A stretch of 32,000 nucleotides of DNA, taken from positions 17,397 to 49,396 of the forward strand of contig NZ_JAYKGW010000257.1 in assembly GCF_035285525.1 (NCBI RefSeq). Reading direction: 5' to 3'. The position numbers and the translations under genes were made by a program. This stretch comes from Okeania sp. (GTDB lineage: Bacteria; Cyanobacteriota; Cyanobacteriia; Cyanobacteriales; Microcoleaceae). How positions within the stretch are numbered: position 1 is the first letter of the stretch; every line of letters begins with the position of its first letter. The notes under the pieces were generated by a model, which was not told where the DNA came from, did not search any database, and saw only the letters and a program-made list of their open reading frames with translations. Below, in pieces: positions 208-29,200 of this stretch.

Positions 208-3200
208 TTACCACGGACTACCAACCATAGTAAATCCTGACCAATAATAAGGATGAGATAAATTTTTATTTTCAAACTGTCCTAACCCTGAAGGTAAAAC
301 TACTACACCACGGACTCCAGTTCCCCTTAATTCCCCATCTGCGATAACTACCTCCCCTCGTAACATTGATAACTGTGCTTGTCTTAATGCTTCTGCTTTA
401 ATTTTGGTACGATTCAAATGAGTATAAAATTCTGTCATTAACGCCAATGTCCCCTCATCACTCACATACCAAATACTTGCTAAAGCTGACTTAACTCCTG
501 CTGCTACTGCTAGTCCGGCAAATCCTAATTCGGCATCTTTGTCTCCGAAGGCGGTGCGACAAGCTGACAATACTAATAATTCTACTGCTGGTTCGTTCCA
601 CCCTAATTCTCTAATTTGGTCTAACTTGAGTTGCTCTGTTCCCCACAACTGAATATAAGAATTGTTGGCTTTTCCTGGTCTAAATTCTGCATGGGTGGCT
701 AGGTGAATGATGGGATAGGGATAATTTTGTCTTTGACCTAGAAGGTTATCACGAGTAAATTCTTGATTGAGAAATTTGTTGCCTTGCCATATTTCTTGAG
801 ATATTGTTTCTAATTCTGTGGGTACTGCTGGTAATGGATTTTTGTCTATAAATTGACTTGCTCCCATTGCTAATATTTGGGTGTTTTGAAGTGGTCGGTA
901 GTTGGTATCCATTAAACTAATACTGGGTATTAAACTGAGACTATATTTTTCAATGAGGAATTGTTCTCCATCGTGTAATGCTGCCATAGGTAAGGTACGC
1001 AAACCATTGTCCATACTAAAGAGTAGGGTATTGATTTTGGCTGTTTCTAATTCTGCTGCTATGGGTGCAATCAGCCATTTGTATAATTTTTGGGCTGGGG
1101 GTAGATAACTATGGCTGTCACGACGGAGGGGGTTGGTGATTTCTGCTCGTAGGTTTAAGACGGTTTCCATTAGTTCTTTCCGGTTAATTTGGGGTATGGT
1201 TTTGAGGATGGGGTCACTACCTGGTGTATATAATACGAGTTGCAGGGAGTCTGGGTAGGCGGTAATATAAATAATGGCTGAGTTGTTACCTGTTTGACTG
1301 GCAATTTTGGTTAGCACTTCCCGGATATTTTGTGTGGATATAGTTTGGTTGTATAGGTCTGACTGAAAGTAGTCAGCAAATTCATTGGTGCGATTTTGTT
1401 CTATATTTATGATTGTTTGGGAACTGGCAGCAACTGTGAGGGGTGTTGTATTCACTGTGTTGATGTTTATATGGGTAGGCAGGTTGGGGTTGATGTTGTT
1501 TGTCTGGCGATCGCTTTTTTTATTTAGGGGATTAGGGTTATTGGTGGTTCTGATGGAACTGTTATTTTGAACTGATTGAATAATCTTTGTGGCGATGGAG
1601 TTTAATGCTCCATTGGTTATGGGTGTTGGGGGTTCTTCTAGGTTGGGTAAAGTTACTGGTATTTGTGGTAATGCTTCTAGTAGAGTATTGTCTATTGATG
1701 GATTAATTGAAATGATTTCACCTGTATTGAGTGAGTCTGCTAGTAGGTTGATGATGTCTCTGATGTTGCCTATGGGGGTAATGTCTCCGGTGGTAATGTT
1801 TCGATCGGCAATATTGGTAATGTTGGCATCACCGTTTTCGGTAATCGCTGTTTGGTCTCCGGTGGTAATGTTTCGATCGGCAATATTGGTAATGTTGGCA
1901 TCACCGTTTTCGGTAATCGCTGTTTGGTCTCCGGTGGTAATGTTTCGATCGGCAATGTTGGTAATGTTGGCATCACCGTTTTCGGTAATCGCTGTTTGGT
2001 CTCCAGTGGTAATGTTTTGATCGGCAATGTTGGCAATGTTGGCATCACCGTTTTCGGTAATCGCTGTTTGGTCTCCGGTGGTAATATTCCCATCAGCAAT
2101 ATTAGTAATGTTAGCATCACCTGTTCCACTATCAACTGTTTGGTCTCCAGTCTCAATATTTTCCCCAGCTTGAACTTCTATTCCTCCTGCGGTTCCTGAC
2201 TCAGAGCTAGATTCTAAGTCTTGAGTTGTCACGGAACCGTCGGCAGCAATAATTTCTACTTTACCTGCTGCGGTTCCTCCTTGAGTGGTGACGTTGGCAG
2301 TTCTAATATCTCCTTGGGTGCTAAAGGTATTTAAGGCTATATTTCCACTGGTACCATTGGGGGCACGGGTTTGAATTGTTCCTGTATTAATGCTACCACT
2401 AATACTTTGAATGTTTACGTTTCCACTTCCGGCATTACCAAAGGATGCGACGTTATTAATATTGACAATACCACTAGCATCCAGATTAATATCTCCACCT
2501 GTACCATTTGCACCGGAGGAATAGGTGGCAATATGATTAATATTGAGATTGCCGTTTTCTTGGGTTTGGAGGGAGATGAAACCACCTGCTCTATTAATTC
2601 CTGTGGAAAATATAACTTCTGTGTTGATGTTACCATTGTTGTTGATAATGTTCACGGTTCCACTATTTTCTCCACCGAAAGAACTTATGTTGCTGGTAGT
2701 AATGTTTCCCTCTCCTCGCTGAATTATGAAAATATTACCACCACTACCTTCGGGAGCGTAGGAACTAAGGTTTGCAGGTTCTTCTGCAAAGATGGTGGCA
2801 ATATTTTCTGAGGATACGTCAGCATTAGTGGAAATATTTGCTTCTCCATTTAAAAGACCGGCGGTAGTATCAATGTTGCCATTGATTGTGTCTAGAGTAA
2901 TGTCACCACCCCTGGTGCCACCACCACTAAAGCTTTCGATAAAACCTGTGCTAATGTTTGTTGTGGCACTGAGGGTGATGTTTCCTCCTTGTCCTGCGGT
3001 GGAAAAGGAGCTTAGTTCGCCAATGCTGGTATCTATTGCACCGTCGGCAGAAATAAAGATGTTGCCACCCTGACCATTACTTTCTGCTGATGAGCTAATG
3101 GTTGCAGTTGTCACATCACTACCACTTGCAATGTTAACGTTTCCACCATTCCCATTACTTTCTGAAAAGGAGGAGATATTTTCTACTTCAATGTTATCAG

Positions 3201-6200
3201 CACCAATAATATTTACATTACCGCCATTACCTTTTCTGGAGGAAGATGCTAACTCACCATTGGTTGTATTAATAGCTCCTGTTTCACTTTTGATAAAAAT
3301 TTCTCCTCCGTTGCCTGTGCCAACGGTTCCGGAAAAATCAGAACGAGAGTCAATGTCAGCAAGATTAATGTCGCCTTTACTAATAATGGTGACGTTGCCT
3401 GCATTTCCGTTTTGACTGTAGGAAACTATTTCTCCGGTGCTGGTGACGGTTCCTTCTCTACTCTGAATGGTAATGTTACCACCAGGATTTTCTTCTACAT
3501 CTTCAACTTGAGATTGAGTTATAGTCAAGTCTGCTTCCTTGTTTCTAAAGGAGGATCTATCTTCTGGGTCTCCTGCTGAAGAAAGTATTTCACTGGTACT
3601 AATATCACCTGTAGCAGTGATCTCAATATTACCTGCTGCTCCTTTACGAGAAAATGATTCAATTTCTTGGGTTTGAATGTTTTCTTGACTATTTAAAGTA
3701 ATTGCACCTCCTGAACCGTCTTCTGCTCTAGAAGATATTTTTTTTCCTATTTCTATTCCCCCTGTAGTGCTTTCTATTTCAATATCACCACCTTTTCCAT
3801 AGCGATCGCTTCGAGTATTAATTTCATCTTCTATGATAATGTCACTATGACTTTTGATGGTAACGTTGCCTCCATCGTTAAGGTCGGCGAGACTATTTAT
3901 TTCTTTCTGTATGGTGACACTACCTTCTGCACTGGTAACGGTAATATCACCACTCCTGCCTCCATTTGTTTGGGTTGGGGAAATTGGTTCTTCAGGGTTG
4001 CCAGCGGTGGAAAGAAGTTTAGCGGTGGTAATGTTGCCTTCTGCTTCAATGTTAATATTACCTCCATTACTCTGACGAGAGAATGATTCTAAATTCCCTC
4101 TTTCTATTTCAATGGTTCCTCCAGCTCTGAGGGTGATGTCTCCTCCATTTCCCATACCACTTTCATTGTTTGAGATTGCTTCGCTATCGCTCGCAATGAC
4201 AGATGATGATTCCTCTTGGTCTTCAAATTCTGCTCCAGCAAAGGATGAAATATTGTTAGCTTGGATATTTCCCTGAGTCGCAGTAATACTGACACTTCCA
4301 GCATTCCCATTAAAGGATGAGGATATCAGGTCGCCGTTACTGGTATCAATATTTCCCTTGGTACTTTGGAGGGCAATATTTCCCCCATTACCGTTATCAT
4401 CAGAACGGGAATCTATATTACCTGTAGTTATGTCTAAGTTGCTGGTAATATTTATATGTCCAGCATTTCTTAACCCAGAAAAAGAGCTAAGAAAACCGCT
4501 ACTGGTATCAATATTTCCATTCATACTTTCTAGGGTTATGTTGCCACCTTGACCACTACTATTGGCACGAGAATCTATACTTCCTGTGGTTAAGTTACCA
4601 CTGCTAGTAATTTTGACGCTTCCAGCATTTCCCAACTCCGAAAAAGAAGACAGTTCACCTCTGCTAGTATTAACATTTTGATTTTGACTTTCTAAAGTAA
4701 TATCTCCACCTTTACCATCTCCTTTGGAACGAGAATCTATATTACTGGTTGTGAGATTGCCAGAACTTTGAATATTAATATTACCGCCATCACCACTTCC
4801 AGAAGAAGAAGATAACTCACTATCAATAGTTATAGCACCTGTATTGCTCTTGATGAAAATATCACCCCCATCACTATTGGTATTAGCACGAGAATTAATA
4901 GTCGCTGTTTCCTCCTCTGTTTGGTTATTAAGGATTTCAATATCTCCATGACCTTTAATAGTGATATTACCACCCTTGCTGGTAGCACCAAAACTTTCTA
5001 TTTCTGAATTAATAGTTACTGCACCCTCTGTACTTTCAATGATAATGTTCCCTCCTTGACCTATGTTGTCTGAACGGGAGTCAATATTTGCTAATGCTTT
5101 GGTTTCATTGTCACCAATATTAATATCACGAACGGCTTCGATAGTTATATTACCACCATTACCAGAACTGGCAAAACTATTAATTTCTCCTGTGGTGGTT
5201 ACTGCACCTGCTGTACTCTTAATATTAATATCACCACCATTAGCACTATTGCTCTGATTCTCGGTTGTTGATGTGGGGTTATTATTTTCGGGGTCTCCAG
5301 CAGTAGAAATAATAACGTTGGTAACAATATCACCCGTTGCTTCTAAACTGATATTTCCTCCAGAACCATTACGAGAAAATGACGTCAAACTAGACTCTGA
5401 CTCTGTTCCAGCAGTAGTATCAATATCTCCTCCTGCGGTCAAAGTAATATTTCCCCCATTACCAAAATTTCCAGTTCCCGTAAAATCAGAATCTATTGCA
5501 GCACCAAGCTCTTGACCTGCAAAAGAAGAAATATTGCCCGTAGTGATATTGCCATCACTGGTAATACTTATATTACCTGCATTCCCTGTCAGGGAAGAAG
5601 AGATAAGTTCACCATTACTGGTATCAACATTACCAGTCTTGCTTTCGAGAGTAATATTTCCACCCTGAACATTTTCTGAACTAGAATTAATATTACCAGC
5701 AATTAAACTTCCATCACTTTTGACTGTCACATTACCCGCTGTTCCGTCCAGAGAGAGAGAAGATATTTGTGCATCTCCGGCAACACCAGTAGTATCTATA
5801 CTGCCGTTGGTACTTTCAATGGTGACATCTCCACCATTACCACCAGATGTTGCTGACTCAATAGTTTCGGTATTAATATTTCTAGCAGCTTTAATGCTGA
5901 CATTTCCTGCATTTCCACCGACGGCAACAGTATCTATTTCTTTCGTAAGAGTCACCTTACCTTCTTTACTTTCAATAATAATATCACCACCATTCTTATT
6001 ATTTGTGATCGTATTTTCAGCAGTTTCTGTTGTGTCTGTGTTGCCAACATTACCAACAATAGGGTTGCCCGCAGAAGAAAAAACACCCCCAGTAGTAATA
6101 TCACCCTTGCTAGTAATACTAACTCTACCCGCACCACCCAACCGAGAAAATGATTCCAACGTTCCAGCCCTAGTATCTATATTTCCCTCTGCTGTCAGAG

Positions 6201-8931
6201 TAATATTTCCTCCATTTCCATCTGCTGTCTGGGGTTGGTCAAAACTAACATCACTGTCATCGAATGGTGATGAATTTCCTAAATCTCCCTGTTGGTCTAG
6301 TGCTTCGCCCGCAGAAGAAAATATATCTGCTGTAGTAATATCGCCCTCACTGGTGATCGTAACATTTCCAGCATTACCTCCAACAGAAAAAGAAACTATT
6401 TCGTCCCTACTGGTATTAACATTTCCACCTGTACTTTCTAGAGTAATATTGCCACCATTACCACCACCATTGGAGCGGGAGTCGATATAACCTGTAGTTA
6501 AATTGTTATCGCTCGTAATAGTAACATCCCCACCATTACCTTGAAGGGAAGCAGAAAATATTGCACCTGCGGTTGTATTAACTTTACCGCCACTATTTAT
6601 AGTAATATCTCCACCCTTATTATTTCCTTGAGTAGAAGCATTAATATCTCCAGTTCTAATATTACCATTTGCATCGAGAAATATATTCCCACCACTGGTT
6701 GAAATTGAATTAGCTTTCAGGGTAGTTTCAGTAGTATTAATATTCCCGCTGCTAAAAATATTAATATTCCCTGGTTGACCATTAGGAACTGATGTAGTTA
6801 TCTCTTCAATTGCAGTAAAATTACCATTAATATTTAACTCTAAATTGCCTCCACCTCTAACTTTAATCCCAGCAAAATCATCACTAACTTCACCGATAAT
6901 TAAATTATTTATAGAATTAATAAATACCCCTTTTTCTCCTGCTAATACTTCTAAATTATTTACATCTATTCGCAAAGGTGCTTCCGCCAAACCTACACCA
7001 CCAATATCTTGAGTTTGAAATATTGCTTGGTCGGCAGTAATTAAAGAATTAAGAGAAACTTGGTTAATATTGCCTTGATTAGCATTAAGAAAAACTTGAC
7101 CAGTAGTTATTAAACCAGCCAGATTTATATCACCATTATCTCCTAAATTTCCTAGTTCAATTGTGATATTTCCACTACCTGCATCTAAAGTTGTTCCTGC
7201 TTTTTGATTAATAGAAGCTGCCCCTGGTTCGCGACCATTAATATCAACTCCATCATCATTTCCCAAAAGAGTAATATCACCATTGCCACTAGACGTATTT
7301 ATATCAGCATTTAGATTAATATTTCGTCCAGCTTTTAACTCTATAGACTCCAAAGACTCAGAAGTTTCTATTGATTGATTAACAGTTATATCATTGTCAG
7401 CTTCCAAACTAATATTACCCTCTAATTCTCCTATTTTTTCAGCAGAAAATGTTTGAAACTCCCCTGATTCCCCCTTCAAAGAAAGAGATGTTTCCGCTCC
7501 AATAATTATATTTTTTGGGTCAAATAATATAGTCCCTCCTTCTCCTAATGCTGCACTAACATTAACATTCCCATCAAAAATTAATCGCTCCTTGCCAGAT
7601 ACTTCAACAAACCCTCCATTACCAAAAAATTCTCCTCCTTTAGCACTAATATTTCCAGAAAAATTAGTAGTATTATCAGACCAAATTATCACTCGACCGC
7701 CATTACCATTATTAATAGCATTGGCAGAAATAAAAGAGTTATTATTAACAAAAGTTTGTAGAGAATTAGGAACTATTCCATTGCCTTGGAAGTCGCCTCC
7801 AATTAATATATTTCCTCCTCCATTTAAACCATTGGCATTAATGTTGGCGTCTATTATTGCTATTTGGGAACCTAAGATGTTAATTTGTCCACCTTTTTGG
7901 GTTATATCCCCCCTAACCCCCCTTTGAAAGGGGGGGACTGGCTCTCCCCTTTGAAAGGGGGGGACTGGCTCTCCCCTTTGGAACGGGGGAATGTGGGATA
8001 CATCTATATTTCCAGAAATTACCACAGGAGCAAGATGATCCCACTGTTGTACCGTTGTATCTGTCAAAACCAAATTACCTTCAGCATCAACCATTACAGA
8101 TGAGGCGCTGTATCCCCCCTGACCCCCCTTTGAAAGGGGGGAACCTGTTAACAGTTGTGGTAACGATAACAGTGTAATCGACTCTCCCAACAAATTAACA
8201 GCAGCAGGCGATATATCCAAACTTAAAACATGACCTGGTTGAGAGATGCGCAAAACATCTCCACCATTAACCGCAGCGATCGTAATATTTCCACCCGCTG
8301 TAGAAAGTTCCCCTGTATTGACAACCGTGCCGCCAGTCAGAGTAAGATTATTTCCTGGATTTAAAGTTAAATTTCCTTGGTTAACTATAGCCCCTGGGTT
8401 AGAAACATCAAAACGATACCCACTGGGATTACCCACTAAATTTGAGTAGTTGTTTGTACCTAGTGTTTGAAACCAAAAATTATTGTTATCGAAACCAATA
8501 CCCGTGGCAGTAGTAACACTAAAAGAAGCAGGAACATTAAGACTAGCATTAGGGCCAAACATTATACCAGCAGGGTTCATTAAGAAAAGATTAGAATTGC
8601 CACCAATTACTTGAATCAGACCATTAATAGTAGAAGCATTTCCCCCTGTGACTCTACCCAGGATATTCTGAATGTCTGGGGTAGTCAGAAAGTTAGCAGT
8701 TTGATTAGATTTAACATTAAATTCGCCAAAACTGTGAAATAGGTTAGCACCGTCGTTACTAGGAGAGCCACCTTCGATATTAAATTGGTTGCCATTTTGA
8801 TTGACAGTAGTTCCTGTACCGTCCGTTGCTGGAGTAATAGACTGGGAATGAGCGGGGATGGCGACTGTTCCTAACAGGGAAGTCAAAGCCATCAGGGGAT
8901 AAAGATGTAATTTTAAGAGCTTCATTTGCAT
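208..8931 (-). CDS. Giant secreted TpsA/FhaB-like exoprotein: signal peptide, TPS (haemagglutination-activity) domain, long Gly/Asn-rich beta-helical repeat region, Pro/Asn-rich linker and C-terminal CHAT protease domain
   Basis: Uninterrupted 2,939-codon ORF. The likely true start is Met33 of the track ORF (ATG at 8929..8931), giving MQMKLLKLHLYPLMALTSLLGTVAIPAHSQ, a classic signal peptide. The 32 codons upstream lie in dispersed repeat DNA. TPS-type motifs are ANLFHSFGEFNV and NPAGIMFGPNASLNV. Dozens of degenerate GGNITL.S..GN..T / GNAGNV.I.S repeats follow. The C-terminus has a CHAT His/Cys dyad. Confidence 0.9.
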   Translation of the reverse strand: MQMKLLKLHLYPLMALTSLLGTVAIPAHSQSITPATDGTGTTVNQNGNQFNIEGGSPSNDGANLFHSFGEFNVKSNQTANFLTTPDIQNILGRVTGGNASTINGLIQVIGGNSNLFLMNPAGIMFGPNASLNVPASFSVTTATGIGFDNNNFWFQTLGTNNYSNLVGNPSGYRFDVSNPGAIVNQGNLTLNPGNNLTLTGGTVVNTGELSTAGGNITIAAVNGGDVLRISQPGHVLSLDISPAAVNLLGESITLLSLPQLLTGSPLSKGGQGGYSASSVMVDAEGNLVLTDTTVQQWDHLAPVVISGNIDVSHIPPFQRGEPVPPFQRGEPVPPFQRGVRGDITQKGGQINILGSQIAIIDANINANGLNGGGNILIGGDFQGNGIVPNSLQTFVNNNSFISANAINNGNGGRVIIWSDNTTNFSGNISAKGGEFFGNGGFVEVSGKERLIFDGNVNVSAALGEGGTILFDPKNIIIGAETSLSLKGESGEFQTFSAEKIGELEGNISLEADNDITVNQSIETSESLESIELKAGRNINLNADINTSSGNGDITLLGNDDGVDINGREPGAASINQKAGTTLDAGSGNITIELGNLGDNGDINLAGLITTGQVFLNANQGNINQVSLNSLITADQAIFQTQDIGGVGLAEAPLRIDVNNLEVLAGEKGVFINSINNLIIGEVSDDFAGIKVRGGGNLELNINGNFTAIEEITTSVPNGQPGNINIFSSGNINTTETTLKANSISTSGGNIFLDANGNIRTGDINASTQGNNKGGDITINSGGKVNTTAGAIFSASLQGNGGDVTITSDNNLTTGYIDSRSNGGGNGGNITLESTGGNVNTSRDEIVSFSVGGNAGNVTITSEGDITTADIFSSAGEALDQQGDLGNSSPFDDSDVSFDQPQTADGNGGNITLTAEGNIDTRAGTLESFSRLGGAGRVSITSKGDITTGGVFSSAGNPIVGNVGNTDTTETAENTITNNKNGGDIIIESKEGKVTLTKEIDTVAVGGNAGNVSIKAARNINTETIESATSGGNGGDVTIESTNGSIDTTGVAGDAQISSLSLDGTAGNVTVKSDGSLIAGNINSSSENVQGGNITLESKTGNVDTSNGELISSSLTGNAGNISITSDGNITTGNISSFAGQELGAAIDSDFTGTGNFGNGGNITLTAGGDIDTTAGTESESSLTSFSRNGSGGNISLEATGDIVTNVIISTAGDPENNNPTSTTENQSNSANGGDINIKSTAGAVTTTGEINSFASSGNGGNITIEAVRDINIGDNETKALANIDSRSDNIGQGGNIIIESTEGAVTINSEIESFGATSKGGNITIKGHGDIEILNNQTEEETATINSRANTNSDGGDIFIKSNTGAITIDSELSSSSGSGDGGNINIQSSGNLTTSNIDSRSKGDGKGGDITLESQNQNVNTSRGELSSFSELGNAGSVKITSSGNLTTGSIDSRANSSGQGGNITLESMNGNIDTSSGFLSSFSGLRNAGHINITSNLDITTGNIDSRSDDNGNGGNIALQSTKGNIDTSNGDLISSSFNGNAGSVSITATQGNIQANNISSFAGAEFEDQEESSSVIASDSEAISNNESGMGNGGDITLRAGGTIEIERGNLESFSRQSNGGNINIEAEGNITTAKLLSTAGNPEEPISPTQTNGGRSGDITVTSAEGSVTIQKEINSLADLNDGGNVTIKSHSDIIIEDEINTRSDRYGKGGDIEIESTTGGIEIGKKISSRAEDGSGGAITLNSQENIQTQEIESFSRKGAAGNIEITATGDISTSEILSSAGDPEDRSSFRNKEADLTITQSQVEDVEENPGGNITIQSREGTVTSTGEIVSYSQNGNAGNVTIISKGDINLADIDSRSDFSGTVGTGNGGEIFIKSETGAINTTNGELASSSRKGNGGNVNIIGADNIEVENISSFSESNGNGGNVNIASGSDVTTATISSSAESNGQGGNIFISADGAIDTSIGELSSFSTAGQGGNITLSATTNISTGFIESFSGGGTRGGDITLDTINGNIDTTAGLLNGEANISTNADVSSENIATIFAEEPANLSSYAPEGSGGNIFIIQRGEGNITTSNISSFGGENSGTVNIINNNGNINTEVIFSTGINRAGGFISLQTQENGNLNINHIATYSSGANGTGGDINLDASGIVNINNVASFGNAGSGNVNIQSISGSINTGTIQTRAPNGTSGNIALNTFSTQGDIRTANVTTQGGTAAGKVEIIAADGSVTTQDLESSSESGTAGGIEVQAGENIETGDQTVDSGTGDANITNIADGNITTGDQTAITENGDANIANIADQNITTGDQTAITENGDANITNIADRNITTGDQTAITENGDANITNIADRNITTGDQTAITENGDANITNIADRNITTGDITPIGNIRDIINLLADSLNTGEIISINPSIDNTLLEALPQIPVTLPNLEEPPTPITNGALNSIATKIIQSVQNNSSIRTTNNPNPLNKKSDRQTNNINPNLPTHININTVNTTPLTVAASSQTIINIEQNRTNEFADYFQSDLYNQTISTQNIREVLTKIASQTGNNSAIIYITAYPDSLQLVLYTPGSDPILKTIPQINRKELMETVLNLRAEITNPLRRDSHSYLPPAQKLYKWLIAPIAAELETAKINTLLFSMDNGLRTLPMAALHDGEQFLIEKYSLSLIPSISLMDTNYRPLQNTQILAMGASQFIDKNPLPAVPTELETISQEIWQGNKFLNQEFTRDNLLGQRQNYPYPIIHLATHAEFRPGKANNSYIQLWGTEQLKLDQIRELGWNEPAVELLVLSACRTAFGDKDAELGFAGLAVAAGVKSALASIWYVSDEGTLALMTEFYTHLNRTKIKAEALRQAQLSMLRGEVVIADGELRGTGVRGVVVLPSGLGQFENKNLSHPYYWSGFTMVGSPW
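211..1401 (-). other. CHAT (caspase-like) protease module at the C-terminus of the giant protein
   Basis: Typical CHAT layout: EQNRTNEFADYF...IIYITAYPDSLQLVL...LLFSMDNGLRTLPMAALHDG...IIHLATHAEF (His codon at 691..693) ...VELLVLSACRTA (Cys codon at 559..561) ...SIWYVSDEGT...HPYYWSGFTMVGSPW. Confidence 0.8.
1783..2142. repeat. Five tandem 72-bp coding repeats (24 aa: GDQTAITENGDANITNIADRNITT) inside the giant gene
   Basis: Units are 1783-1854, 1855-1926, 1927-1998, 1999-2070 and 2071-2142. The first three differ by only 1-2 nt and the last is diverged. All are in frame. Confidence 0.95.
7903..8000. repeat. Dispersed palindromic mini-element (TATCCCCCCTAACCCCCCTTTGAAAGGGGGG) plus two further 27-bp tandem units, inserted in frame in the giant gene
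   Basis: Encodes HIPPFQRGEPVPPFQRGEPVPPFQRGVRGDIT. The same core occurs at 8111..8141 and, in reverse complement, in the intergenic stretch 25807..25833. Confidence 0.85.
8040..8844 (-). other. TPS / haemagglutination-activity secretion domain of the giant protein (approximate bounds)
   Basis: Sequence ITPATDGTGTTVNQNGNQFNIEGGSPSNDGANLFHSFGEFNV...GRVTGGNASTINGLIQV...NLFLMNPAGIMFGPNASLNVPASF matches the conserved N-terminal TpsA pattern (N.F..F...., NP.G. motifs) directly after the signal peptide. Confidence 0.75.
8111..8141. repeat. Second in-frame copy of the palindromic mini-element (TATCCCCCCTGACCCCCCTTTGAAAGGGGGG) in the giant gene
   Basis: Near-identical to 7903..7937 and to the reverse complement of 25807..25833. 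Encodes SPLSKGGQGGYS. Confidence 0.8.
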
Positions 8932-8959: not shown

Positions 8960-9057
8960 ATGAACGCTATTAGTAGGGTGTGTTTCGCTACGCGACATGA
9001 AAAGCCCACTTCGTCAGGCATCGACACACTATATATAGTACCTTTGCGTAACTCCTG
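8960..9057. mobile_element. 5'-truncated copy of a ~90-bp MITE family (full TIRs CAGGACTTACGCA ... TGCGTAAGTCCTG)
   Basis: ATGAACGCTATTAGTAGGGTG...TATATATAG..CTTTGCGTAACTCCTG aligns with the full copy at 12186..12274. It lacks the left TIR. Confidence 0.7.
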
Positions 9058-9065
9058 TTAATATT

Positions 9066-9155
9066 AGGACTTACGCACGAAGGCTATTGGTAGAGTCCGT
9101 TAGCGTCAGCGTCACGCACTAATACTCTGTATATAGTGTCTTTGCGTAACTCCTG
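9066..9155. mobile_element. ~90-bp MITE, full copy
   Basis: AGGACTTACGCA at 9066 and TGCGTAACTCCTG ending at 9155. The internal GCGT.AC...TATATAG core is shared with the other copies. Confidence 0.85.
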
Positions 9156-9199
9156 AATATGAAAAAAATAACTATGATTTGTTATTGTATATCTTTTTT

Positions 9200-9361
9200 A
9201 GGACTTACGCACGCGCAACGTGTTTCTGTCATTGCGGGATTCGCAGCTTTGCGATAGCAAGCCACAGGGTTTCGCTCCGCGACATGAATGGGTGGGTCGC
9301 AGTCCGTCAGGATAGCAATCTAAAGCCAAGAAAATTGCGTTCCTCATGGCTTTAGTCCTGT
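9200..9361. mobile_element. Variant or rearranged copy of the same MITE family
   Basis: Starts with AGGACTTACGCA. The internal GGTTTCGCTCCGCGACATGAA...GTCCGTCAGGATAGC resembles 8982..9025. It ends CATGGCTTTAGTCCTG, like the end of the copy at 21880..21968. Confidence 0.5.
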
Positions 9362-9372
9362 TTTTCATTATT

Positions 9373-9462
9373 AGGACTTACGCATAGACCCTATCTGTAA
9401 GGTGCGTTACCCTGACGCTAACGCACCAATACTCTATATATAGTGCTTTTGCGTAAGTCCTG
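9373..9462. mobile_element. ~90-bp MITE, full copy
   Basis: AGGACTTACGCA at 9373 and TGCGTAAGTCCTG ending at 9462. Confidence 0.85.
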
Positions 9463-9589
9463 ATTATATCAGTTGCTATAGTAATTACTATTTGAGATGA
9501 AACAGTCCACTACTTATTAAGGTGACTATAATATTATGAAGCATTAGTCGTTAATTTTTCTGGTTCTACAGGAGAATTATGTAATAACA

Positions 9590-10619: not shown

Positions 10620-11741
10620 TTAGGAAAATTCATCTAAAATGAAATCCTCTGCGCTAATACTTGGCGCACCTTTCAAAGTAGCTATTTTGTTGCCACCGCC
10701 CAAACCAGGTAGGGCACCGTTGGCATTATAATATAAATCTCCAGTGGAGCGAACGTAAACGATATCTGCTACAGAACCAGCAACGGCTTTTTTGTTTTTT
10801 ACTGATGCAAATTCTCGCTCAATACTAAATCCTTTTCCTACTTCACTACCAAGAGTGATAAAAGTATCTGTATTGAGAACAATATTGTCAACATTGGGTC
10901 GAAAATCTGTGATAGTATCAACGCCCAAGTCTTCTCTCCTGTAAGCTCTGTTGCTGCCTATCAGAAAATCATCTGCACCGCCACCACCTGTTAATGTATC
11001 GTTTCCGGCGCCACCGAATAGTTCGTCAGCACCACCACGACCGATTAAAGTATCGTTACCGTTTCCGCCATTGATTCTCTCAGCTTGATTAGTTCCTCGG
11101 AGTCGGTTGTTTTCATTATCACCGTTCATAGTTCTATTGGGGCCTGGATCAGAACTGGAAAACTCCCATTCCAGAAGAGCTAGACTGTTTCTATAATCAT
11201 AACCACCGAAGCCAACATAAGCCTTGTTACCGATAATACCTTCAATATCGACTTTTGTAGACAACAAAGGATTTTTAGGTTTAGTAGTCGTGGTAGATGT
11301 AAAAACTTTTAGTCGATCATTCTTGCTCTTATATTCAATCCAAACATTAATCTCTTCATCGCGCTCTAAGTCTAAATCGTCAGGTTGAACTGAAACTAAA
11401 GGTATAGGACTACCGTTGGTATTAATTAAAATACCCTGTAAACTGTCTAATTCTACAGCTACACTTGATAAAATTCCTACGCCACTATCAAAAGAGTGAG
11501 TTGCTACAGCAATATCTTCTCTTGGATCGTCATGTAGTATGAATGTTAAACCAGTGTTTTGTCCTACTTGATATCGAAAATTGGTTTCAAAAGAAGTATC
11601 TTCATCAAACCTAATTTGTTCAGAAAAAAAGGCACTACCTTTATTTTGATCGTTAGCATCAAACTCTAAAGTCTGGCCTATTCTAGCTGCTCCTTCATTA
11701 AAAGTAAACTCGAAAAAGTTGTTAGAACTTAATTTAACCAT
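10620..11741 (-). CDS. Secreted lectin-like (ConA/legume-lectin fold) domain protein with C-terminal RTX calcium-binding repeats
   Basis: The N-terminal 200 aa have a lectin-like pattern (FNEGAARIGQTLEF...GSAFFSEQIRF...SFETNFRYQV...GLTFILHDDP...VAVELDS). These are followed by GGNGNDTLIGRGGADELFGGAGNDTLTGGGGADDF (GGxGxD nonapeptides) and a DIVYVRSTGDLYYNANG tail. There is no N-terminal signal peptide, which is consistent with a type I secretion substrate. Confidence 0.85.
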   Translation of the reverse strand: MVKLSSNNFFEFTFNEGAARIGQTLEFDANDQNKGSAFFSEQIRFDEDTSFETNFRYQVGQNTGLTFILHDDPREDIAVATHSFDSGVGILSSVAVELDSLQGILINTNGSPIPLVSVQPDDLDLERDEEINVWIEYKSKNDRLKVFTSTTTTKPKNPLLSTKVDIEGIIGNKAYVGFGGYDYRNSLALLEWEFSSSDPGPNRTMNGDNENNRLRGTNQAERINGGNGNDTLIGRGGADELFGGAGNDTLTGGGGADDFLIGSNRAYRREDLGVDTITDFRPNVDNIVLNTDTFITLGSEVGKGFSIEREFASVKNKKAVAGSVADIVYVRSTGDLYYNANGALPGLGGGNKIATLKGAPSISAEDFILDEFS

Positions 11742-12185: not shown

Positions 12186-12274
12186 AGGACTTACGCATGA
12201 ACGCTATTGGTAGGGTGCGTTAGCCGTAGCGTAACGCACCAAGACTCCATATATAGACCTTTGCGTAAATCCTG
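12186..12274. mobile_element. ~90-bp MITE, full copy (TIR AGGACTTACGCA ... TGCGTAAATCCTG)
   Basis: Aligns along its whole length with 9066..9155, 9373..9462 and the reverse complement of 21880..21968. It is preceded by the 25-bp motif at 12148..12172. Confidence 0.85.
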
Positions 12275-15969: not shown

Positions 15970-16060
15970 CAGGACTTACGCAAGGTTACTATATATAGAG
16001 TTGAAAAACTATTGCACAACAGTTTTAAGCGCTACATCTAGGGTCGCTGCGTAAGTCCTG
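15970..16060. mobile_element. ~90-bp MITE (CAGGACTTACGCA ... TGCGTAAGTCCTG) nested in the composite MITE
   Basis: Perfect 13-bp TIRs. Flanked by ATCTA on both sides, a possible target duplication. It is absent from the homologous position of the copy at 21320..21790. Confidence 0.8.
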
Positions 16061-17455: not shown

Positions 17456-18886
17456 ATGGTATCAACCCCATCTAAAATAACTACAATAACTACTAATTCA
17501 GGGCTTCAGTATCTACCAAAATTAGGAGGTTCTATCAAAGAAAGTTCACCTAATCAAGAACTTTTACCACTTACTGCTAAAGTCAATAATTTAGACCATT
17601 TAGAAATCGGAGGTTGGGATGTCCCAGGATTAGTGGAGAAATTTGGCTCACCTTTGTATATTGTGGACGAATATACTCTCAGAACAGCTTGTCGTCAATA
17701 TAGAGAGGCACTAAAACAATATTATCCTGGAGAATCTTTGGTACTTTATGCTTCCAAAGCTTGGAATAGTTTAGCAATATGTGCCCTATGTGGTTCTGAA
17801 GGTTTAGGAATAGATGTTGTATCTGGAGGAGAATTATATACAGCTCTTCAAGCAGGTGTTAAATCGGAAAAAATATATTTTCATGGCAACAATAAATCTG
17901 TAGCTGAATTAAATCTTGCCATTGAAACAGATTGTATAATTGTTGTAGATAACTGGCTAGAATTAGAAACATTAGCAGCTTTAAAAAAGGAACAAAAAGA
18001 GCAACTACAAAATCCTACTAAAATAATGATCAGGTTAACGCCTGGTATTGAGTGTCATACCCATGAATACATTCGTACAGGTCATCTAGATAGTAAGTTT
18101 GGATTTGACCCTAATCAATTGAATGATGTTTTTGCCTTCATTAGTAAACAAGAATTACTATCATTTATTGGTATTCATGCTCATATAGGTTCCCAAATTT
18201 TTGAAATTCAACCCCATCAAGATTTAGCAGATGTAATGGTAGATGCAATAACAACTGCTTCAGTACATAATTTATCAATCAAAGAAATTAATATTGGTGG
18301 AGGTTTAGGAATCCGTTATACTGAAGCAGATGACCCACCTAGTATTGAAACTTGGGTTCAGAAAGTTAGTACAGCAATGGTAGATGCTTGTCAAAGTAAA
18401 CAATTACCATTACCTAAACTATTATGTGAGCCAGGACGGTCAATAATTGGACCAGCCTGTGTTACAGCTTATACTGTAGGGTCTCAAAAACAAATTCCGG
18501 AAATTAGAACTTATATATCTGTAGATGGAGGAATGTCAGATAATCCTCGGCCAATAACTTATCAATCAGTTTATCGAGCCGTTGTAGCTAATAAATTATC
18601 TGAACCAAGCACAGAAACAGTTACTATAGCTGGTAAACACTGTGAATCTGGTGATGTTCTAATTAAAAATGCTAACTTACCAGTTACTCAACCAGGAGAT
18701 TGTTTAGTAGTTATGACTACAGGTGCTTATAACTATAGTATGGCTTCTAACTATAATCGAGTACCACGTCCAGCAGCAGTTTTGGTAGGCAATAATGAAG
18801 TTAATGTAATTTTGCAAAGGGAAACCTACCAAGATTTACTGAATCAAGATATTTTACCCGAAAGAATAACTATGGGTGTTCAATAA
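17456..18886 (+). CDS. lysA: Diaminopimelate decarboxylase
   Basis: 476 aa. PLP-dependent Orn/DAP/Arg decarboxylase motifs YASKAW, HAHIGSQ, GGGLGIRY, EPGRSI, CESGDVL and GAYNYSMASNYN. Confidence 0.95.
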   Translation: MVSTPSKITTITTNSGLQYLPKLGGSIKESSPNQELLPLTAKVNNLDHLEIGGWDVPGLVEKFGSPLYIVDEYTLRTACRQYREALKQYYPGESLVLYASKAWNSLAICALCGSEGLGIDVVSGGELYTALQAGVKSEKIYFHGNNKSVAELNLAIETDCIIVVDNWLELETLAALKKEQKEQLQNPTKIMIRLTPGIECHTHEYIRTGHLDSKFGFDPNQLNDVFAFISKQELLSFIGIHAHIGSQIFEIQPHQDLADVMVDAITTASVHNLSIKEINIGGGLGIRYTEADDPPSIETWVQKVSTAMVDACQSKQLPLPKLLCEPGRSIIGPACVTAYTVGSQKQIPEIRTYISVDGGMSDNPRPITYQSVYRAVVANKLSEPSTETVTIAGKHCESGDVLIKNANLPVTQPGDCLVVMTTGAYNYSMASNYNRVPRPAAVLVGNNEVNVILQRETYQDLLNQDILPERITMGVQ

Positions 18887-19110
18887 TGGATAATTGATAA
18901 TTACTTCTCCTGAAAAGGAAGAAGATTTAATCAAAGGAAGAAGTCTATTTTTTTTCCTTTTAAAGGGAAGGCTTTAAACCTGAATTATTTAATTATTCGG
19001 TAATAGTATTTAATTGGTAACAGAAAGCTAAAAGAAATCACAATTAATCTGTTACCAGCGTAAAAGAGAGTAAATTAAAAGTTGATATTAGATTAATAAT
19101 TGAAAGTTAA

Positions 19111-20028
19111 ATGAAATCGGGTCTTAGTAATGACCCAGGCTTGATGAAGTCCTTATTAATACACAGTATTGATATTGGACTGGTTCTCGCTCTGATATAT
19201 ATGGTGTTGGTCATCATAGGGGAACGTCGTACACTATGGATGGTAAGGGGCTTTATAGTCTTAATGTTAGCCTCTGCTCTAAGTCATTCGGCTGGATTAA
19301 GACTATTAAGTTTTGCCCTTAACAGTCTAGTGATCGGTTCTGCTGTCTCTATGGCAGTTATATTACAATCAGAATTTCGTAGGTTTCTCGAACAGTTAGG
19401 ACAAGGAGAAATTCTGCAAATGTTTGGACGCCATCGTCCACCTTTACCTGAATCAGATAATATTATTGATGTAATAGTCGAGGCAATCAAACAATTGTCC
19501 CAAAATCGGATAGGTGCTTTGTTAATTATAGAAACAAATGGACCGATTGATGAAAGGGATTTTTCTGTACCTGGGGTAAAGTTAAATGCTGAACTTTCTC
19601 GTGAACTATTACAAACTATATTTCAGCCCAAAACTTTATTACATGATGGAGCAGTTCTAATTAGAGAACATAAGATTATCTCGGCTGGTGTGATTTTACC
19701 ACTGTCTGAGAAAATAGCTTCTAGGCAATTAGGGACTCGTCATAGAGCAGCTATGGGAATTACAGAACAAGTGGAAAGATGTCTCTGTATAGTAGTGTCT
19801 GAAGAAACTGGTTCTATTTCTCTGGCTGAAAAAGGAATCTTGAATCGGCCTTTAACAGGTAATAAACTAAAGGAGTTATTAGAGGAACGTCTATTTCTAT
19901 CAGGTAGTGAAAAAAATACAAAATCAATCCCTATATTTAGTCTGGGACGTCAAGTAGGATTAAAAGGATCGCAATTAATTTCATGGGTACTTCGTCAGAG
20001 TCCATCAGCTCCTCGAAAGAAAAGATGA
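19111..20028 (+). CDS. cdaA: Diadenylate cyclase CdaA (membrane-anchored DAC domain)
   Basis: Three N-terminal hydrophobic helices followed by a DAC domain with [20 protein letters not shown] and [12 protein letters not shown]. Confidence 0.9.
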
Positions 20029-20771
20029 ATCAAGGAACTTGTTTACAAGATTTACCTGTTGACTTAAAACCAGAAAAGTTGCCTCGCCATGTAGCTGTGA
20101 TTATGGATGGTAATGGTCGTTGGGCAAAAAATCGTGGTTTACCAAGGATTATGGGACATAGGCGTGGAGTGGAAGTCCTCAAGGATTTGCTACGATGTTG
20201 TAAGGATTGGGGTATAGAAGCATTAACTGCTTATGCTTTTTCTAGTGAAAATTGGGGCAGACCTCTGGAGGAAGTTAATTTTTTAATGACTTTGTTTGAA
20301 AAAGTTCTGTGTCGAGAGTTAAAAGAAATGGTGGCAGAAGATGTTCAAATTAGATTTGTTGGTAATTTGAGTTCTTTGCCTCTATCTTTACAAACTGAGA
20401 TTAAACGCTCAGTGGAAACAACTGGGCAAAATCAAGGGATTAAGTTTACTGTAGCTACTAATTATGGCGGACGTCAGGAAATTATACAAGCTTGTCGGGC
20501 GATCGCTACTCAAGTACAAGAAGGTTTACTTAAACCTGAAGAAATTAATGAAGCAATTTTTGAGAAATATCTTTATACTACTGGTATTTCTCATCCAGAT
20601 TTATTAATTCGTACCAGTGGTGAAATGCGAATTAGTAATTTTTTATTGTGGCAAATTGCTTATTCAGAAATTTATGTGACTGAGACATTTTGGCCTGATT
20701 TTAATCGTGCTGAGTTTCATCGTGCTTTATGTGCTTATCAGCAAAGAGAACGGAGATTTGGCAAAATTTAA
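20025..20771 (+). CDS. uppS: Isoprenyl transferase (undecaprenyl-diphosphate synthase)
   Basis: Motifs [27 protein letters not shown] and [21 protein letters not shown]. The preferred start is ATG at 20025, forming an ATGA overlap with the cdaA stop (20026..20028). The track ORF start at 19983 lies inside cdaA. Confidence 0.92.
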
Positions 20772-26202: not shown

Positions 26203-29200
26203 ATGAGAATATTAGTAACAGGTGGCGCAGGTTTTCTTGGTTCTCATCTCATCGATAGATTAATGGAACAAGGCCATGAAGTCCTCTGTCTGGATAATTT
26301 TTATACCGGAACTAAACGCAATATTTATAAATGGTTGAATCATCCCTATTTTGAATTAATTCGTCACGATATTACAGAACCAATTAGATTAGAAGCAGAT
26401 CAAATATATCATCTAGCTTGTCCTGCTAGTCCAGTACATTATCAATTTAATCCTGTCAAGACAATTAAAACTAATGTGATGGGAACTTTGAATATGTTGG
26501 GGTTAGCTAAAAGGGTTAAAGCTAGATTTTTTTTGGCTTCGACATCTGAGGTTTATGGAGATCCGGATGTACATCCTCAAACAGAAGATTATAGAGGTAA
26601 TGTTAATTGTATTGGGATTCGTAGTTGTTTTGATCCGGAAACGGAAATTTTAACGGAAGCAGGTTGGATAGCTTTTCCCGATTTACAACCAGATGTTAAA
26701 GTCGCAACATTAAACCCAGAGGGTAAGGTTGAATATCATATTCCTGATGAATATATTGTACAACCATATATTGGGGAAATGTATCGTTTTGCTAATGCTA
26801 AATTTGATTTTTGTGTAACTCCTAATCATTGGATGTATGTCCGGAGTGAGACAGATCATTTAAAGTTTATCAGAGCGGATGAAGATAAACATTGGCACAG
26901 TTGGCGGGCATTAACTGGAGGAGATTTTGGAGGAGAAGAGTTAGAATGGTTTGAGTTAGGAACTCCTCCTAGAAATGCTAAAGTAAAAGTAGAAAAAATC
27001 CCCATGGATGACTGGTTAGAATTTTTGGGTTATTACATTTCTGAAGGTTGCGTTGATGTGAAAAAAAGAGCGCGAGTGGTAGGAGGAAATGATTATGATG
27101 TGGCAGATTATAATGTTTTAATTGCTCAAGAAAATTCTGAGGGACGTTTAAAAATTGCTAATTGTTTAAGTCGTTTAGGATTTAAGTTTTTTGATGGGGA
27201 CGAGCATCAATTTCAAATTTGCAGTAAACAGTTAGCTGAGGTTTTATTACCTTTAGGTAAGTCTGGTGATAAATACATTCCTCGTGAGTTATTTGAACTA
27301 TCAAAAAGACAGTTATTAATCCTATTTAATGCTCTAATATTGGGGGATGGTTCGGAACGAGGAAATTGCTTTACTTACTATAGTAAATCTAAACAATTAG
27401 CAGATGATGTACAAGAATTAGCACTTCGTTGTGGTTATGCAGCTTCGGTAGTTTCTCATGCTATTGGGCGCGACCTTTATCGAGTGAATATTCGACCTGC
27501 TAAGGATGCAAGTTTAGTTGAACCAGAACGTTTCCATTATGTAGGAAAAGTTTATTGTGTTAATGTCACAAATCATGTAGTTTTTGTCAGGAGAAATGGT
27601 CGTGCTGCTTGGTGCGGTCAATGTTACGACGAAGGGAAGCGAGTAGCAGAAACTTTGGCATTTGATTACCATCGTCAAAATAAAGTTGATATTCGAGTAG
27701 TCAGAATTTTTAATAGTTTGACTGGAGACCAAAAGGTACTTTATTATATTTGTGAAAAACTCTATTATGAAACTTTTGCTGAGTGTTATGAAAGGATTAA
27801 TGGAGATATATCTAATGTTTCAGTGCCTTGTTTTGATGAAAATTCCCGGACAGTAATTAAACCAATTTCTGCTATTTGGAAACATCATGTTAAGAAGAAG
27901 GGTTTCAAGATTAAAACTCTTTGGGGTAAGGAGATAAAAATTACTGAAGACCATAGTTTATTTACTAGGGATGAAAATGATCGACCTCAAGCAGCTTTTG
28001 GCAGTGAATTAAAGGTGGGAGATGAAATTGGAGTTCCTAGTTATATTAGCTTTTTGGAACAAACTTTACAACCATTCCACATTACAGATAAGATATTAAG
28101 CAAAGCAGAAATATCTGTAGAAAGTCAAGAGACTATTTCCTATCTAGAAAAATATGGAGATAAAATTCGGGAGTATTTATTGGCAAAAGGTCTAAATCCC
28201 GAACAACTTTATTCTACCTTGAAAAATTACGAAGCAACAAATCAAATTCCTTGGCATCTATGGGAATATTTAGAACTGCCTTTACCTGAAAAAGAAAAAA
28301 TTTGCTATTCATCTACAAAAGCAGTTAAAAATTCGATAAGCAACGTAGAAGACTTTTTATGGTTATTAGGGTTTTATGTGTCTAAAGGAAGTTTGATAAA
28401 TAATCAAATTGTTTTCAAAGGAGAAGCTGAAAAATTATCAGAAGTAATAGAGAGAATATTTGATTTTCAGCCAGAAATTAATGAATCAGGAGATGTAACG
28501 ATTGAGTCAAAAATTATAGTTGATTTAATTGCAGATGGATTTAATTTTGGCAGAAAAGAAAAAGATATTCCTAATTGGATTTTACAACTTCCTCCAAAAC
28601 AATTAATTAAATTTTTACAGGGATTTGCTGAAGGTAATGATGTAGAAGATAAATTAAGTTCAAAGTTCGAGTTTGAGAGCGATCGCCAGTTAGTTACTGA
28701 AAAGTTAGTTTTAATCTTTGCTAAGTTTGGGTTAGTAGCAAATGTTTCTGAAATAGAGGCACAAATCTATCGGATAACGGTAGAAGGATTAGAATATACT
28801 AATATCCAGAATTTGTCTAACGTTCAACAGAAAATATTAGCTAAAACAACAGGTGATATTGTTTGGGCAAAAATAGAAAGTATGGAAGAATTTGCCATAG
28901 ATGATTATGTCTATGATTTCTCTGTACCAAATTATGAGAACTTTATTGGGGGAACCTATAGCATTTTTGCTCATAATACTTATGGACCCAGAATGTTAGA
29001 AAATGATGGTCGAGTTGTTAGTAACTTTATCGTCCAAGCTTTACAAGGAATACCATTAACAGTGTATGGCGATGGTTCCCAAACCAGAAGTTTCTGTTAT
29101 GTTTCTGACCTAGTAGAAGGGTTTATCCGATTAATGAATCAAGACTTTATCGGACCAGTTAATATAGGAAACCCAGGAGAATATACTATATTAGAATTAG

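Follow-up and report, generated by a model that had tools for sequence, protein, structure and literature searches.

A TpsA-type exoprotein of the cyanobacterium Okeania with a C-terminal caspase-like CHAT module

Introduction

Two-partner secretion (TPS, type Vb) has been studied almost solely in proteobacterial pathogens. The exoprotein (TpsA) is threaded through its transporter (TpsB) from the N- to the C-terminus, and folds outside the cell. The subject here is a giant TpsA-type gene in a stretch of 32,000 nucleotides (nt) from Okeania sp. (RefSeq assembly GCF_035285525.1, contig NZ_JAYKGW010000257.1, positions 17,397 to 49,396 of the forward strand). The whole stretch is referred to as the window. 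The encoded protein ends in a CHAT module. Proteases of this caspase-like type have lately drawn attention as gated executioners in CRISPR, CBASS, and gasdermin defence. An earlier first-pass annotation of the window, made from the letters alone, had placed the gene in a filamentous cyanobacterium, and the source genus agrees with this. The survey of Arnold et al. in 2010 describes Trichodesmium TpsB barrels fused to hemagglutinin-like domains (Tery_3487). According to the same survey, cyanobacterial TPS proteins are without any functional data (PMC2878562, also PMC3297439).

Closest described systems

FhaB/FHA of Bordetella shares with the window protein a Sec signal, an N-terminal TPS domain, and a giant beta-helical shaft. 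Its large C-terminal region remains periplasmic and keeps the protein attached to the cell, and the mature fibre arises once this region has been cleaved off, which is the logic proposed here for the Okeania protein. The FhaB prodomain is not a protease and is degraded by separate enzymes (DegP, CtpA, and SphB1), whereas the C-terminal module of the window protein is itself caspase-like. The fhaC gene adjoins fhaB, whereas no TpsB gene is linked to the window gene.

CdiA and BcpA have the same order of parts as the window protein, namely a TPS domain, a beta-helical filament, and a C-terminal enzymatic domain, and are exported through TpsB. The C-terminal half of CdiA, like the prodomain of FhaB, is retained in the periplasm during export. 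CdiA-type toxins have a hypervariable C-terminal domain that follows a conserved pre-toxin junction of the VENN type, and the genes for immunity and for the transporter (cdiB) are adjacent. In contrast, the C-terminus of the window protein is conserved and none of these features accompanies it.

EtpA of enterotoxigenic Escherichia coli and HMW1 of Haemophilus influenzae are by sequence the nearest solved structures to the N-terminal ~550 amino acids (aa). Both are glycosylated adhesins from pathogens, their TpsB genes are linked, and neither has a C-terminal protease.

Csx29, from the type III-E CRISPR 'Craspase', and separase have the two-lobed CHAT fold and the His-Cys dyad of the window module, at ~14% sequence identity. 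Both are cytoplasmic proteins fused to TPR, with RNA or securin as the gate. In the window protein, by contrast, a TPR arm is missing and an extracytoplasmic location is predicted.

MARTX toxins and the large clostridial toxins have a cysteine protease domain (CPD) of clan CD, and in the giant secreted MARTX toxins such domains carry out autoprocessing. The likeness to the window protein is that of a caspase-fold protease within a giant secreted repeat protein that it cuts. The CPD differs in being internal, in its activation by host inositol hexakisphosphate, in its type I secretion, and in its family (C80, not CHAT).

DdvA, an anti-sigma factor of Myxococcus, shows that a CHAT domain can reside in the periplasm. 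It is a periplasmic TPR-CHAT protein, and cleavage in trans of a flexible linker within its dimer has been proposed (PMC11506125). DdvA is membrane-anchored, serves an extracytoplasmic function (ECF) sigma switch, and has neither a TPS domain nor a fibre. Its proteolysis is itself only proposed.

Uncharacterised cyanobacterial gene cassettes place a TPS substrate, a CHAT protease, and TpsB export side by side, often together with CHASE2, DUF928, and small RTX proteins. In the cassettes the CHAT protein is separate, exported, and provided with a TPR arm, whereas in the window family it is fused, giant, and unlinked to TpsB.

The window protein

The domains, folds, conservation pattern, and gene neighbourhoods reported in this and the next two sections were computed. 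One open reading frame (ORF) runs on the minus strand from a GTG at 9027 to the stop codon, with no interruption. Translation from the ATG at 8931 gives 2,907 aa, and the single polypeptide of this length given in the first-pass annotation is thus an intact frame. A whole-protein search finds a 100% identical NCBI entry, 'CHAT domain-containing protein [Okeania sp.]', which starts two codons downstream and has 2,905 aa. The four parts proposed earlier (signal peptide with TPS domain, repeat shaft, linker, and CHAT) are recovered by Pfam, the repeat map, composition, and AlphaFold2, and the signal peptide among them is predicted. The sequence indicates with near certainty a Sec-exported substrate (TpsA) of the two-partner pathway. 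Sequence and architecture are already numerous in public databases, and the gene itself is not new. The window holds an ordinary member of a well-represented TPS-CHAT family. The new feature, relative to characterised systems, is a TpsA exoprotein with a caspase-like protease as its C-terminal 'prodomain'.

The C-terminal module is a complete CHAT unit. Pfam CHAT (PF12770) matches aa 2611-2905 with E=1.8e-69 and covers profile positions 2-289 of 289. The AlphaFold2 model of the module, built from an alignment of 20 family members, has a pLDDT of 85.8 and a pTM of 0.90, and shows the two-lobed CHAT fold. Its top Foldseek match in the PDB is the TPR-CHAT protein Csx29 (8eex_B, E=4.7e-16, TM 0.61, ~384 columns). 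Further matches are separase (5fc2, E=3e-9), DdvA (8rot, E=1.1e-7), and SAVED-CHAT (8tl0, E=3e-7). With the CHAT alignment as a profile, no PDB sequence was matched, and these relatives are visible by fold only. Since the Foldseek matches span ~380 aligned positions, the ~100 conserved residues before the Pfam match are, on the model, the pseudo-caspase half of the full unit. In PADLOC the protein gives a single, weak, and generic CHAT similarity (BovA, E=7.5e-7), and a defence-system reading of this match was not adopted.

The catalytic dyad is intact, and both codons lie where the first-pass annotation had put them. His2743, His2747, and Cys2791 are invariant in all 102 aligned sequences (the window protein and 101 homologues), and 75 positions of this alignment are at least 97% identical. 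This invariance of His and Cys indicates strong selection on CHAT catalysis. Cys2791 is the sole cysteine of the 2,907-aa protein, and the catalytic Cys is likewise the only one in 60 of the 101 homologues. A lone Cys is in keeping with an extracytoplasmic protein in which only the nucleophile has been retained. The module stands at the extreme C-terminus, with the GSPW end, in all 101 homologues. CHAT is also C-terminal in the 150 best cluster representatives from a library of 1.84 billion proteins.

Median identities to 119 homologues are 58% for the TPS domain, 37% after it, 30% for the shaft, 44% before CHAT, and 70% for CHAT, the most conserved region of all; the shaft medians lie between 30% and 37%. 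The linker test segment of 100 aa (aa 2401-2500) could be aligned in only 9 of the 119. The gradient (CHAT 70%, TPS 58%, shaft 30%, linker rarely alignable) is the reverse of that in a polymorphic toxin.

The N-terminal part has a start like that of a signal peptide. Read from the sequence, it comprises a basic n-region (K4, K7), a hydrophobic core at aa 8-25, and a cleavage-like site A-H-S/Q. The TPS domain expected from the first-pass annotation is matched by PF05860 over aa 37-234 (E=5.7e-41) and by the NCBIfam model TIGR01901 (adhes_NPXG) over aa 65-142 (E=1.3e-24). The latter match was obtained with the N-terminus searched alone; the full-length protein gave no NCBIfam match, and no NCBIfam model spans the CHAT end. 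A sequence search with the N-terminal 800 aa finds the solved TpsA structures EtpA (8vba, E=1.5e-22) and HMW1 (2odl, E=4.3e-13), over ~550 N-terminal aa.

The shaft of ~2,170 aa is built from units of 26-27 aa (GGNITLxSxxGNIxTxxGxLxSxSxxGN), broken by acidic low-complexity loops. Its composition is 15% G, 13% S, and 12% each of N, I, and T. For aa 1191-1690, AlphaFold2 with an alignment of eight homologous segments gives a confident model (pLDDT 87.7, pTM 0.87). It is an all-beta solenoid in which each repeat contributes three strands and the acidic insertions are without order. No match of this model in the PDB was significant by Foldseek. The weak matches are all beta-solenoids, namely curli CsgA, EtpA, autotransporter passengers, an antifreeze beta-helix, and tailspikes. 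The model thus bears out the beta-helical fibre of Gly/Asn-rich repeats described earlier, whereas no database match does so.

The linker of ~107 aa contains 18% N, 15% I, 14% T, and 11% P. This agrees with its earlier description as Pro/Asn-rich.

Features of the window gene and its surroundings (coordinates are those of the window; a slash marks the predicted cut)
Feature	Coordinates	Strand	Description and basis
Whole gene	208..8931	-	2,907-aa TpsA-type exoprotein with C-terminal CHAT module; stop codon 208..210; ORF list and translation
Predicted Sec signal peptide	8845..8931	-	aa 1-29, MQMKLLKLHLYPLMALTSLLGTVAIPAHS/QS; read off the sequence
TPS domain	8230..8823	-	aa 37-234; NPAGI at aa 119; PF05860, TIGR01901, motif
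27-nt x 2.6 tandem mini-repeat	7919..7989	-	CCCCTTTGAAAGGGG core; in frame, after the TPS domain; Tandem Repeats Finder (TRF)
Beta-solenoid shaft	1732..8229	-	aa ~235-2400; repeat map, AlphaFold2
72-nt x 4.7 tandem repeat	1783..2121	-	94% matches; 24-aa unit DQTAITENGDANITNIADRNITTG; shaft end; TRF and translation
Asn/Ile/Thr/Pro-rich linker	1411..1731	-	aa ~2401-2507; proposed cleavage site; composition
Complete CHAT module	211..1410	-	aa 2508-2907; pseudo-caspase half and active caspase half, ends GSPW; Pfam, AlphaFold2, Foldseek
Catalytic His2747	691..693	-	HLATHA, codon CAT; coordinates and alignment
Catalytic Cys2791	559..561	-	LLVLSACRTA, codon TGT; coordinates and alignment
MITE-like copies	9018-9470, 12186-12273, 15971-16059; single ends near 21880, 23619		Copies beyond those next to the gene lie in other intergenic gaps

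The mini-repeat after the TPS domain (aa ~315-338) contains a CCCCTTTGAAAGGGG palindrome and is read as PPFQRGEPV three times. Homologues have at the same site the product of another mini-repeat, PLSKGGQGG, in one to three copies, and the window protein itself has SPLSKGGQGG near aa ~262. The insert looks like small genomic palindromic repeats tolerated within a surface-protein gene.

Distribution of the family

The whole-protein search gives at least 1,851 matches at E<=1e-10. Nearly all of the best 120 have both TPS and CHAT and are 1,600-4,700 aa long. These 120 come from Okeania, Dapis, Trichodesmium, Hydrocoleum, Oscillatoria, Kamptonema, Planktothricoides, Laspinema, Geitlerinema, and Coleofasciculus. 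The source names of the relatives are 'CHAT domain-containing protein' or 'filamentous hemagglutinin family protein'. One genome per species was also scanned with the C-terminal 400 aa, which gave 407 encoding stretches. Paralogues were counted among 80 of the 407, and the counts are lower bounds. They amount to at least seven in Dapis sp. BLCC M126 and in Oscillatoria princeps, at least four in Oscillatoria sp. PCC 10802, at least three each in Okeania KiyG1, SIO3I5, and SIO2F4, and at least two in T. erythraeum IMS101. One Planktothricoides locus has two TPS-CHAT genes in tandem. Because the matches are many and the paralogues per genome several, the architecture is well represented in databases; it is among the commonest giant-protein types of Oscillatoriales and is not rare.

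TPS-CHAT genes are among the largest and most amplified of bloom- and mat-forming filamentous cyanobacteria such as Trichodesmium, Okeania, Planktothrix, and their relatives. They probably shape the cell surface, and through it adhesion, colony formation, gliding, and phage susceptibility.

With the TPS domain as the sole query, the matches were all short proteins, most of them partial, and no Okeania TPS-TpsB fusion turned up. Large contigs from Okeania, Dapis, and Phormidium encode several TPS-only proteins of 277-514 aa that look complete (P0381, P0394, P0473). These may represent stand-alone TPS domains, or the remnants of giant TpsA genes that have been truncated.

One Okeania locus has a metacaspase-type Peptidase_C14 gene on the opposite strand, ~700 nt upstream of a TPS-CHAT paralogue and separated from it by an ORF of 80 aa (L082:8346-9290). 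This is a single case.

Split cassettes in other cyanobacteria

ShlB-type transporters are abundant in cyanobacteria (4,165 matches), and the best 120 of these are mostly proteins of Nostocales or from metagenomes. A separate CHAT gene adjoins TpsB/TpsA in four of five cyanobacterial ShlB loci, which were chosen non-randomly through plasmid TPS-domain matches and ShlB homologues. Plasmid p1 of Planktothrix agardhii has genes for a TpsA (1,231 aa), an RTX protein, ShlB (566 aa), a TPR-CHAT protein (922 aa), and DUF928. In a Nostocales genome and in Mastigocladopsis repens, ShlB, TpsA, and TPR-CHAT follow one another in one direction. Coleofasciculus has CHASE2-CHAT, DUF928, three small RTX proteins, two TpsAs, ShlB, and TPR-CHAT. 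The fifth locus, in Lyngbya aestuarii (Oscillatoriales), has ShlB alone, which is what one would predict where many unlinked TpsA-CHAT genes share a single TpsB. On plasmid alpha of Nostoc 7120, genes for CHAT, CHASE2, and DUF928 lie at most ~7 kb from a TpsA gene; those for an ABC exporter and for a sigma factor are in between.

The TPR-CHAT proteins of the cassettes resemble the window module. That of Planktothrix is 32% identical to it over 376 aa (E=2e-45), and HLATHA and LLVLSAC.TA motifs are common to both. The three that were checked (L084, L087, L088) start with a basic and hydrophobic N-terminal export signal, for example ...RIYRRRSLFLAALLFTLSTISPVIA/KV. Pfam finds no TPS domain in any of the four, so the split CHAT partner is not a TpsB substrate. 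Partners that bear a signal and lack a TPS domain point to a periplasmic, TpsA-directed role rather than to an exported effector. Because the separate TPR-CHAT gene adjoins TpsB/TpsA in four of the five loci, the window protein looks, to judge by sequence, like a Rosetta-stone fusion of two operon partners, in which a covalent tether would replace the TPR arm.

The cassette TpsAs are short (688-1,231 aa). Their TPS domains are 35-44% identical to that of the window protein in five of the six compared, and the TpsA of L087 has no match in the TPS region. They share a C-terminal module of ~120 aa (…RGL..LP…AQ.C…TGRGGLP…GW..N..G.VVLTA…C..) with cysteines near both ends (L083:9001-11067, L084:6920-10615, L087:11894-15154, L088:11889-14483, L089:4830-10011). 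The window protein is without this module, which could be what the separate TPR-CHAT protein recognises.

CHASE2 sensor and DUF928 proteins recur beside TpsA/TpsB/CHAT genes (L089:1-1657, L083:14222-17436), and one of the CHASE2 proteins (L089) is fused to a CHAT domain. This recurrence suggests a larger, signal-linked cassette.

Full-text literature searches, including those on DUF928/CHASE2 and on Trichodesmium hemagglutinins, gave no paper on a TPS-CHAT fusion and no experimental or dedicated comparative study of TpsB-TpsA-TPR-CHAT cassettes. The first-pass annotation had likewise known of no experimental function for the fusion.

A proposed role for the module

The preferred explanation, which is tentative, is that CHAT acts as a plug on the periplasmic side, where it would cut the linker and so control retention or release of the fibre. 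It would then be an inbuilt device for maturation or release rather than a delivered toxin. After Sec export, TpsB would thread the TPS domain and the shaft, N- to C-terminus, through its Omp85-family channel, and the repeat region of ~2,170 aa would fold outside the cell into a long beta-solenoid fibre. The 400-aa CHAT module, synthesised last, would also arrive last at the transporter. It would fold in the periplasm, and because it could not pass the channel in this state, it would hold the fibre on the cell surface. The His2747/Cys2791 dyad would then cut the flexible linker (aa ~2401-2507), in cis or on a neighbouring copy, and the fibre would be matured or released. The constant CHAT could thus be the housekeeping maturation module of all paralogues, and the variable shafts could have paralogue-specific surface functions such as adhesion, filament-filament contact, or phage exposure. 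The fused protein would be a one-chain version of a three-gene cassette of TpsB, TpsA, and periplasmic TPR-CHAT. Periplasmic retention and later removal of the C-terminal region are suggested by where the module stands, by the poorly conserved linker, and by the exported TPR-CHAT partners without a TPS domain in the split cassettes.

Several observations weigh against this explanation. No TpsB was found in the 32-kb window by Pfam or by tblastn with Planktothrix ShlB, and the first-pass annotation had seen none there either. The same tblastn query had no match in 82 homologue loci. Among 65 flanking ORFs of TpsB-like size, the Pfam families shared by two or more do not include ShlB or POTRA_2, and no TpsB lies within 10 kb of five homologues on large contigs. 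A conserved candidate cleavage motif was looked for in the linker and none was found. The five ShlB loci are a small and non-random sample, and the TPR-CHAT protein of the split cassettes might act on a target other than TpsA. The catalytic thiol would need protection in the oxidising periplasm. Globular C-terminal domains can traverse TpsB unfolded, as CdiA toxins do, and retention is therefore not forced. The location of CHAT, the cleavage, and the export are all deduced from sequence.

Alternative explanations

The same protease could instead be an exported effector at the fibre end that acts outside the producer, on neighbours, prey, host, or its own surface proteins, either as a contact weapon or as a surface or extracellular protease. 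This is unlikely. In its favour, CdiA and other TpsA effectors have a like order of TPS domain, filament, and C-terminal enzyme, both residues of the dyad are present and invariant, and a single Cys suits extracellular life. Divergent shafts on a constant protease could also vary the targeting of the same payload. In their account of polymorphic toxins, Zhang et al. (2012) describe caspase-like domains as releasing peptidases and occasionally as terminal toxins, and C-terminal ones are predicted to be able to act as toxins; the row for the type V secretion system in their table, however, names only HINT as the associated peptidase and no caspase (PMC3482391). The CdiA-type logic of the first-pass annotation is also not upheld by the locus, for the C-terminal module is the most conserved part and not polymorphic (70% against 30% in the shaft). 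VENN, ELYN, or a similar pre-toxin junction is absent from the entire protein. The 207 nt downstream of the stop consist of 8-nt tandem repeats with no ORF start, and no conserved downstream ORF family was found across 77 loci centred on the CHAT end, in line with the earlier remark that no immunity-like gene is visible. If antisense ORFs within the giant genes are disregarded, ABC transporters and IS605/TnpB transposases form the largest neighbour clusters in these loci (five to eight loci each); smaller clusters include DUF1838 and response regulators, and none is specific. The polymorphic-toxin reading was rejected on the conservation pattern, the missing junction motif, and the missing immunity gene. 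The split CHAT partner, which is not a TpsB substrate, also argues against an exported effector. The word 'tipped', used earlier for the protein, does not fit either. In the FhaB/CdiA topology the C-terminal region comes last to the transporter and is held in the periplasm, and is therefore not expected at the distal tip. An effector is disfavoured but conceivable, since globular domains can cross TpsB unfolded.

Release of the fibre could also be conditional. A latent, allosteric CHAT would fire on a cue such as phage binding, envelope stress, or contact, and would jettison the fibre as a decoy or trigger a response. Tight gating is common to all characterised CHAT proteases, and among them DdvA senses phage in the periplasm. 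Fast-diverging shafts suit a surface structure exposed to phage, and the split cassettes adjoin CHASE2 sensor proteins, including the one with a CHAT domain. A phage-resistant Nostoc mutant has its lesion in a TPS-domain surface protein (PMC10811720). The mutated Nostoc gene, however, is not established as a CHAT fusion, the window protein has no sensor domain, and the PADLOC match is generic. Signal-regulated shedding, which draws its support purely from analogy with DdvA and Craspase, is decidedly improbable. A transpeptidase or ligase function is rated slightly lower still, as very unlikely. The acyl-enzyme would be resolved on an envelope acceptor or another fibre subunit, and the solenoid would be anchored or polymerised into the surface fibrils of gliding filamentous cyanobacteria. 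The family is largely confined to filamentous cyanobacteria, many of them gliding Oscillatoriales with several paralogues per genome, the catalytic Cys is strictly conserved, and the module invariably closes the polypeptide, at the place where a reaction of the sorting type would be expected. Clan CD offers precedents in the GPI8 transamidase, the legumain ligases, and PorU, the sortase of type IX secretion. No acceptor motif or sorting signal is present, however, and no LPxTG-like or conserved tail motif lies upstream of CHAT. Sortase-like enzymes are normally separate from the substrate whose signal they cleave, and the characterised CHAT proteases Csx29, separase, and SAVED-CHAT are, to our knowledge, all hydrolases. 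The gene could finally be a decayed or never-expressed relic that looks functional merely through conservation in a repeat-rich family. Mini-repeat insertions and recent tandem duplications found by TRF within the ORF, a promoter region crowded with mobile-element-like sequences, and the many short TPS-only fragments in databases would suit a relic. Nevertheless, the 8.7-kb frame is unbroken, every inserted repeat keeps the frame, and the 75 nearly invariant C-terminal positions include the dyad. The pseudogene reading was rejected because the frame is intact and the dyad invariant, and a relic of any kind is scarcely credible.

The plug-and-cut explanation may be extended, with more doubt than attaches to the explanation itself, to a cyanobacterium-wide 'three-partner' variant of type Vb secretion made up of TPS-CHAT fusions and TpsB-TpsA-TPR-CHAT operons. 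In this variant a caspase-like protease on the periplasmic side would be obligatory and would decide on holding, maturation, or shedding of the fibre, possibly on phage attachment or cell-cell contact. If so, the fast-evolving, multi-paralogue shafts of Oscillatoriales (Okeania, Trichodesmium, Dapis, Oscillatoria) would form a variable coat whose turnover depends on a prokaryotic relative of caspases. The fold would gain a new task in an extracytoplasmic CHAT that is coupled to a secretion pathway. Such a protease would also provide a self-contained way to hold and then release a giant exoprotein, for which FhaB needs three separate proteases. The relationship between fusion and operon makes the maturation hypothesis directly testable. 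The window adds one more member to the family, and all that is said of its mechanism beyond domain identity is inference.

Surroundings of the gene

The upstream side had been described as pure repeat DNA. Only ~450 nt (9018-9470) are of this kind, and ordinary genes lie beyond. These ~450 nt hold three to four stacked copies, directly upstream of the giant gene, of an element that resembles a miniature inverted-repeat transposable element (MITE). It is ~90-100 nt long and has terminal inverted repeats (AGGACTTACGCA...TGCGTAAGTCCT). The MITE 12-mer has 12 matches at no more than one mismatch, against 0.08 expected. On the downstream side, positions 156-211 are occupied by ~6 tandem copies of an 8-nt unit (CTCCCCTA-like), for which a 16-nt unit was scored as well. 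From the giant gene's stop codon onwards, this repeat takes up much of the 207 nt that follow. Promoter and terminator scans of positions 1-400 were empty, as were Rfam and tRNA scans of the window.

The genes upstream of the giant gene encode DUF4926, a legume-lectin and RTX protein, and ClpC. The lectin protein (10620-11741, minus strand, 373 aa) has RTX Ca-binding repeats and is encoded on the same strand as the giant gene, 1.7 kb upstream. Small RTX proteins also occur within the TpsB/TpsA/CHAT cassettes of Planktothrix and Coleofasciculus. This recurrence of RTX may or may not be meaningful.

The other window genes encode GNAT, Orn/DAP decarboxylase, DAC, UppS, DnaJ, LepA, an intein-bearing epimerase, and UDP-glucose dehydrogenase. 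The epimerase is an NAD-dependent epimerase/dehydratase (GDP_Man_Dehyd/Epimerase; 26203-29397, plus strand) that is split by an intein with a LAGLIDADG homing endonuclease (Intein_splicing E=6e-21, LAGLIDADG_3 E=1.6e-8), and its gene is followed by that for the UDP-glucose/GDP-mannose dehydrogenase. Orn/DAP decarboxylase, a DAC-domain protein (c-di-AMP synthase), and undecaprenyl-diphosphate synthase are encoded in a row at 17456-20771 on the plus strand. The genes of the last two overlap (19111-20028 and 19983-20771).

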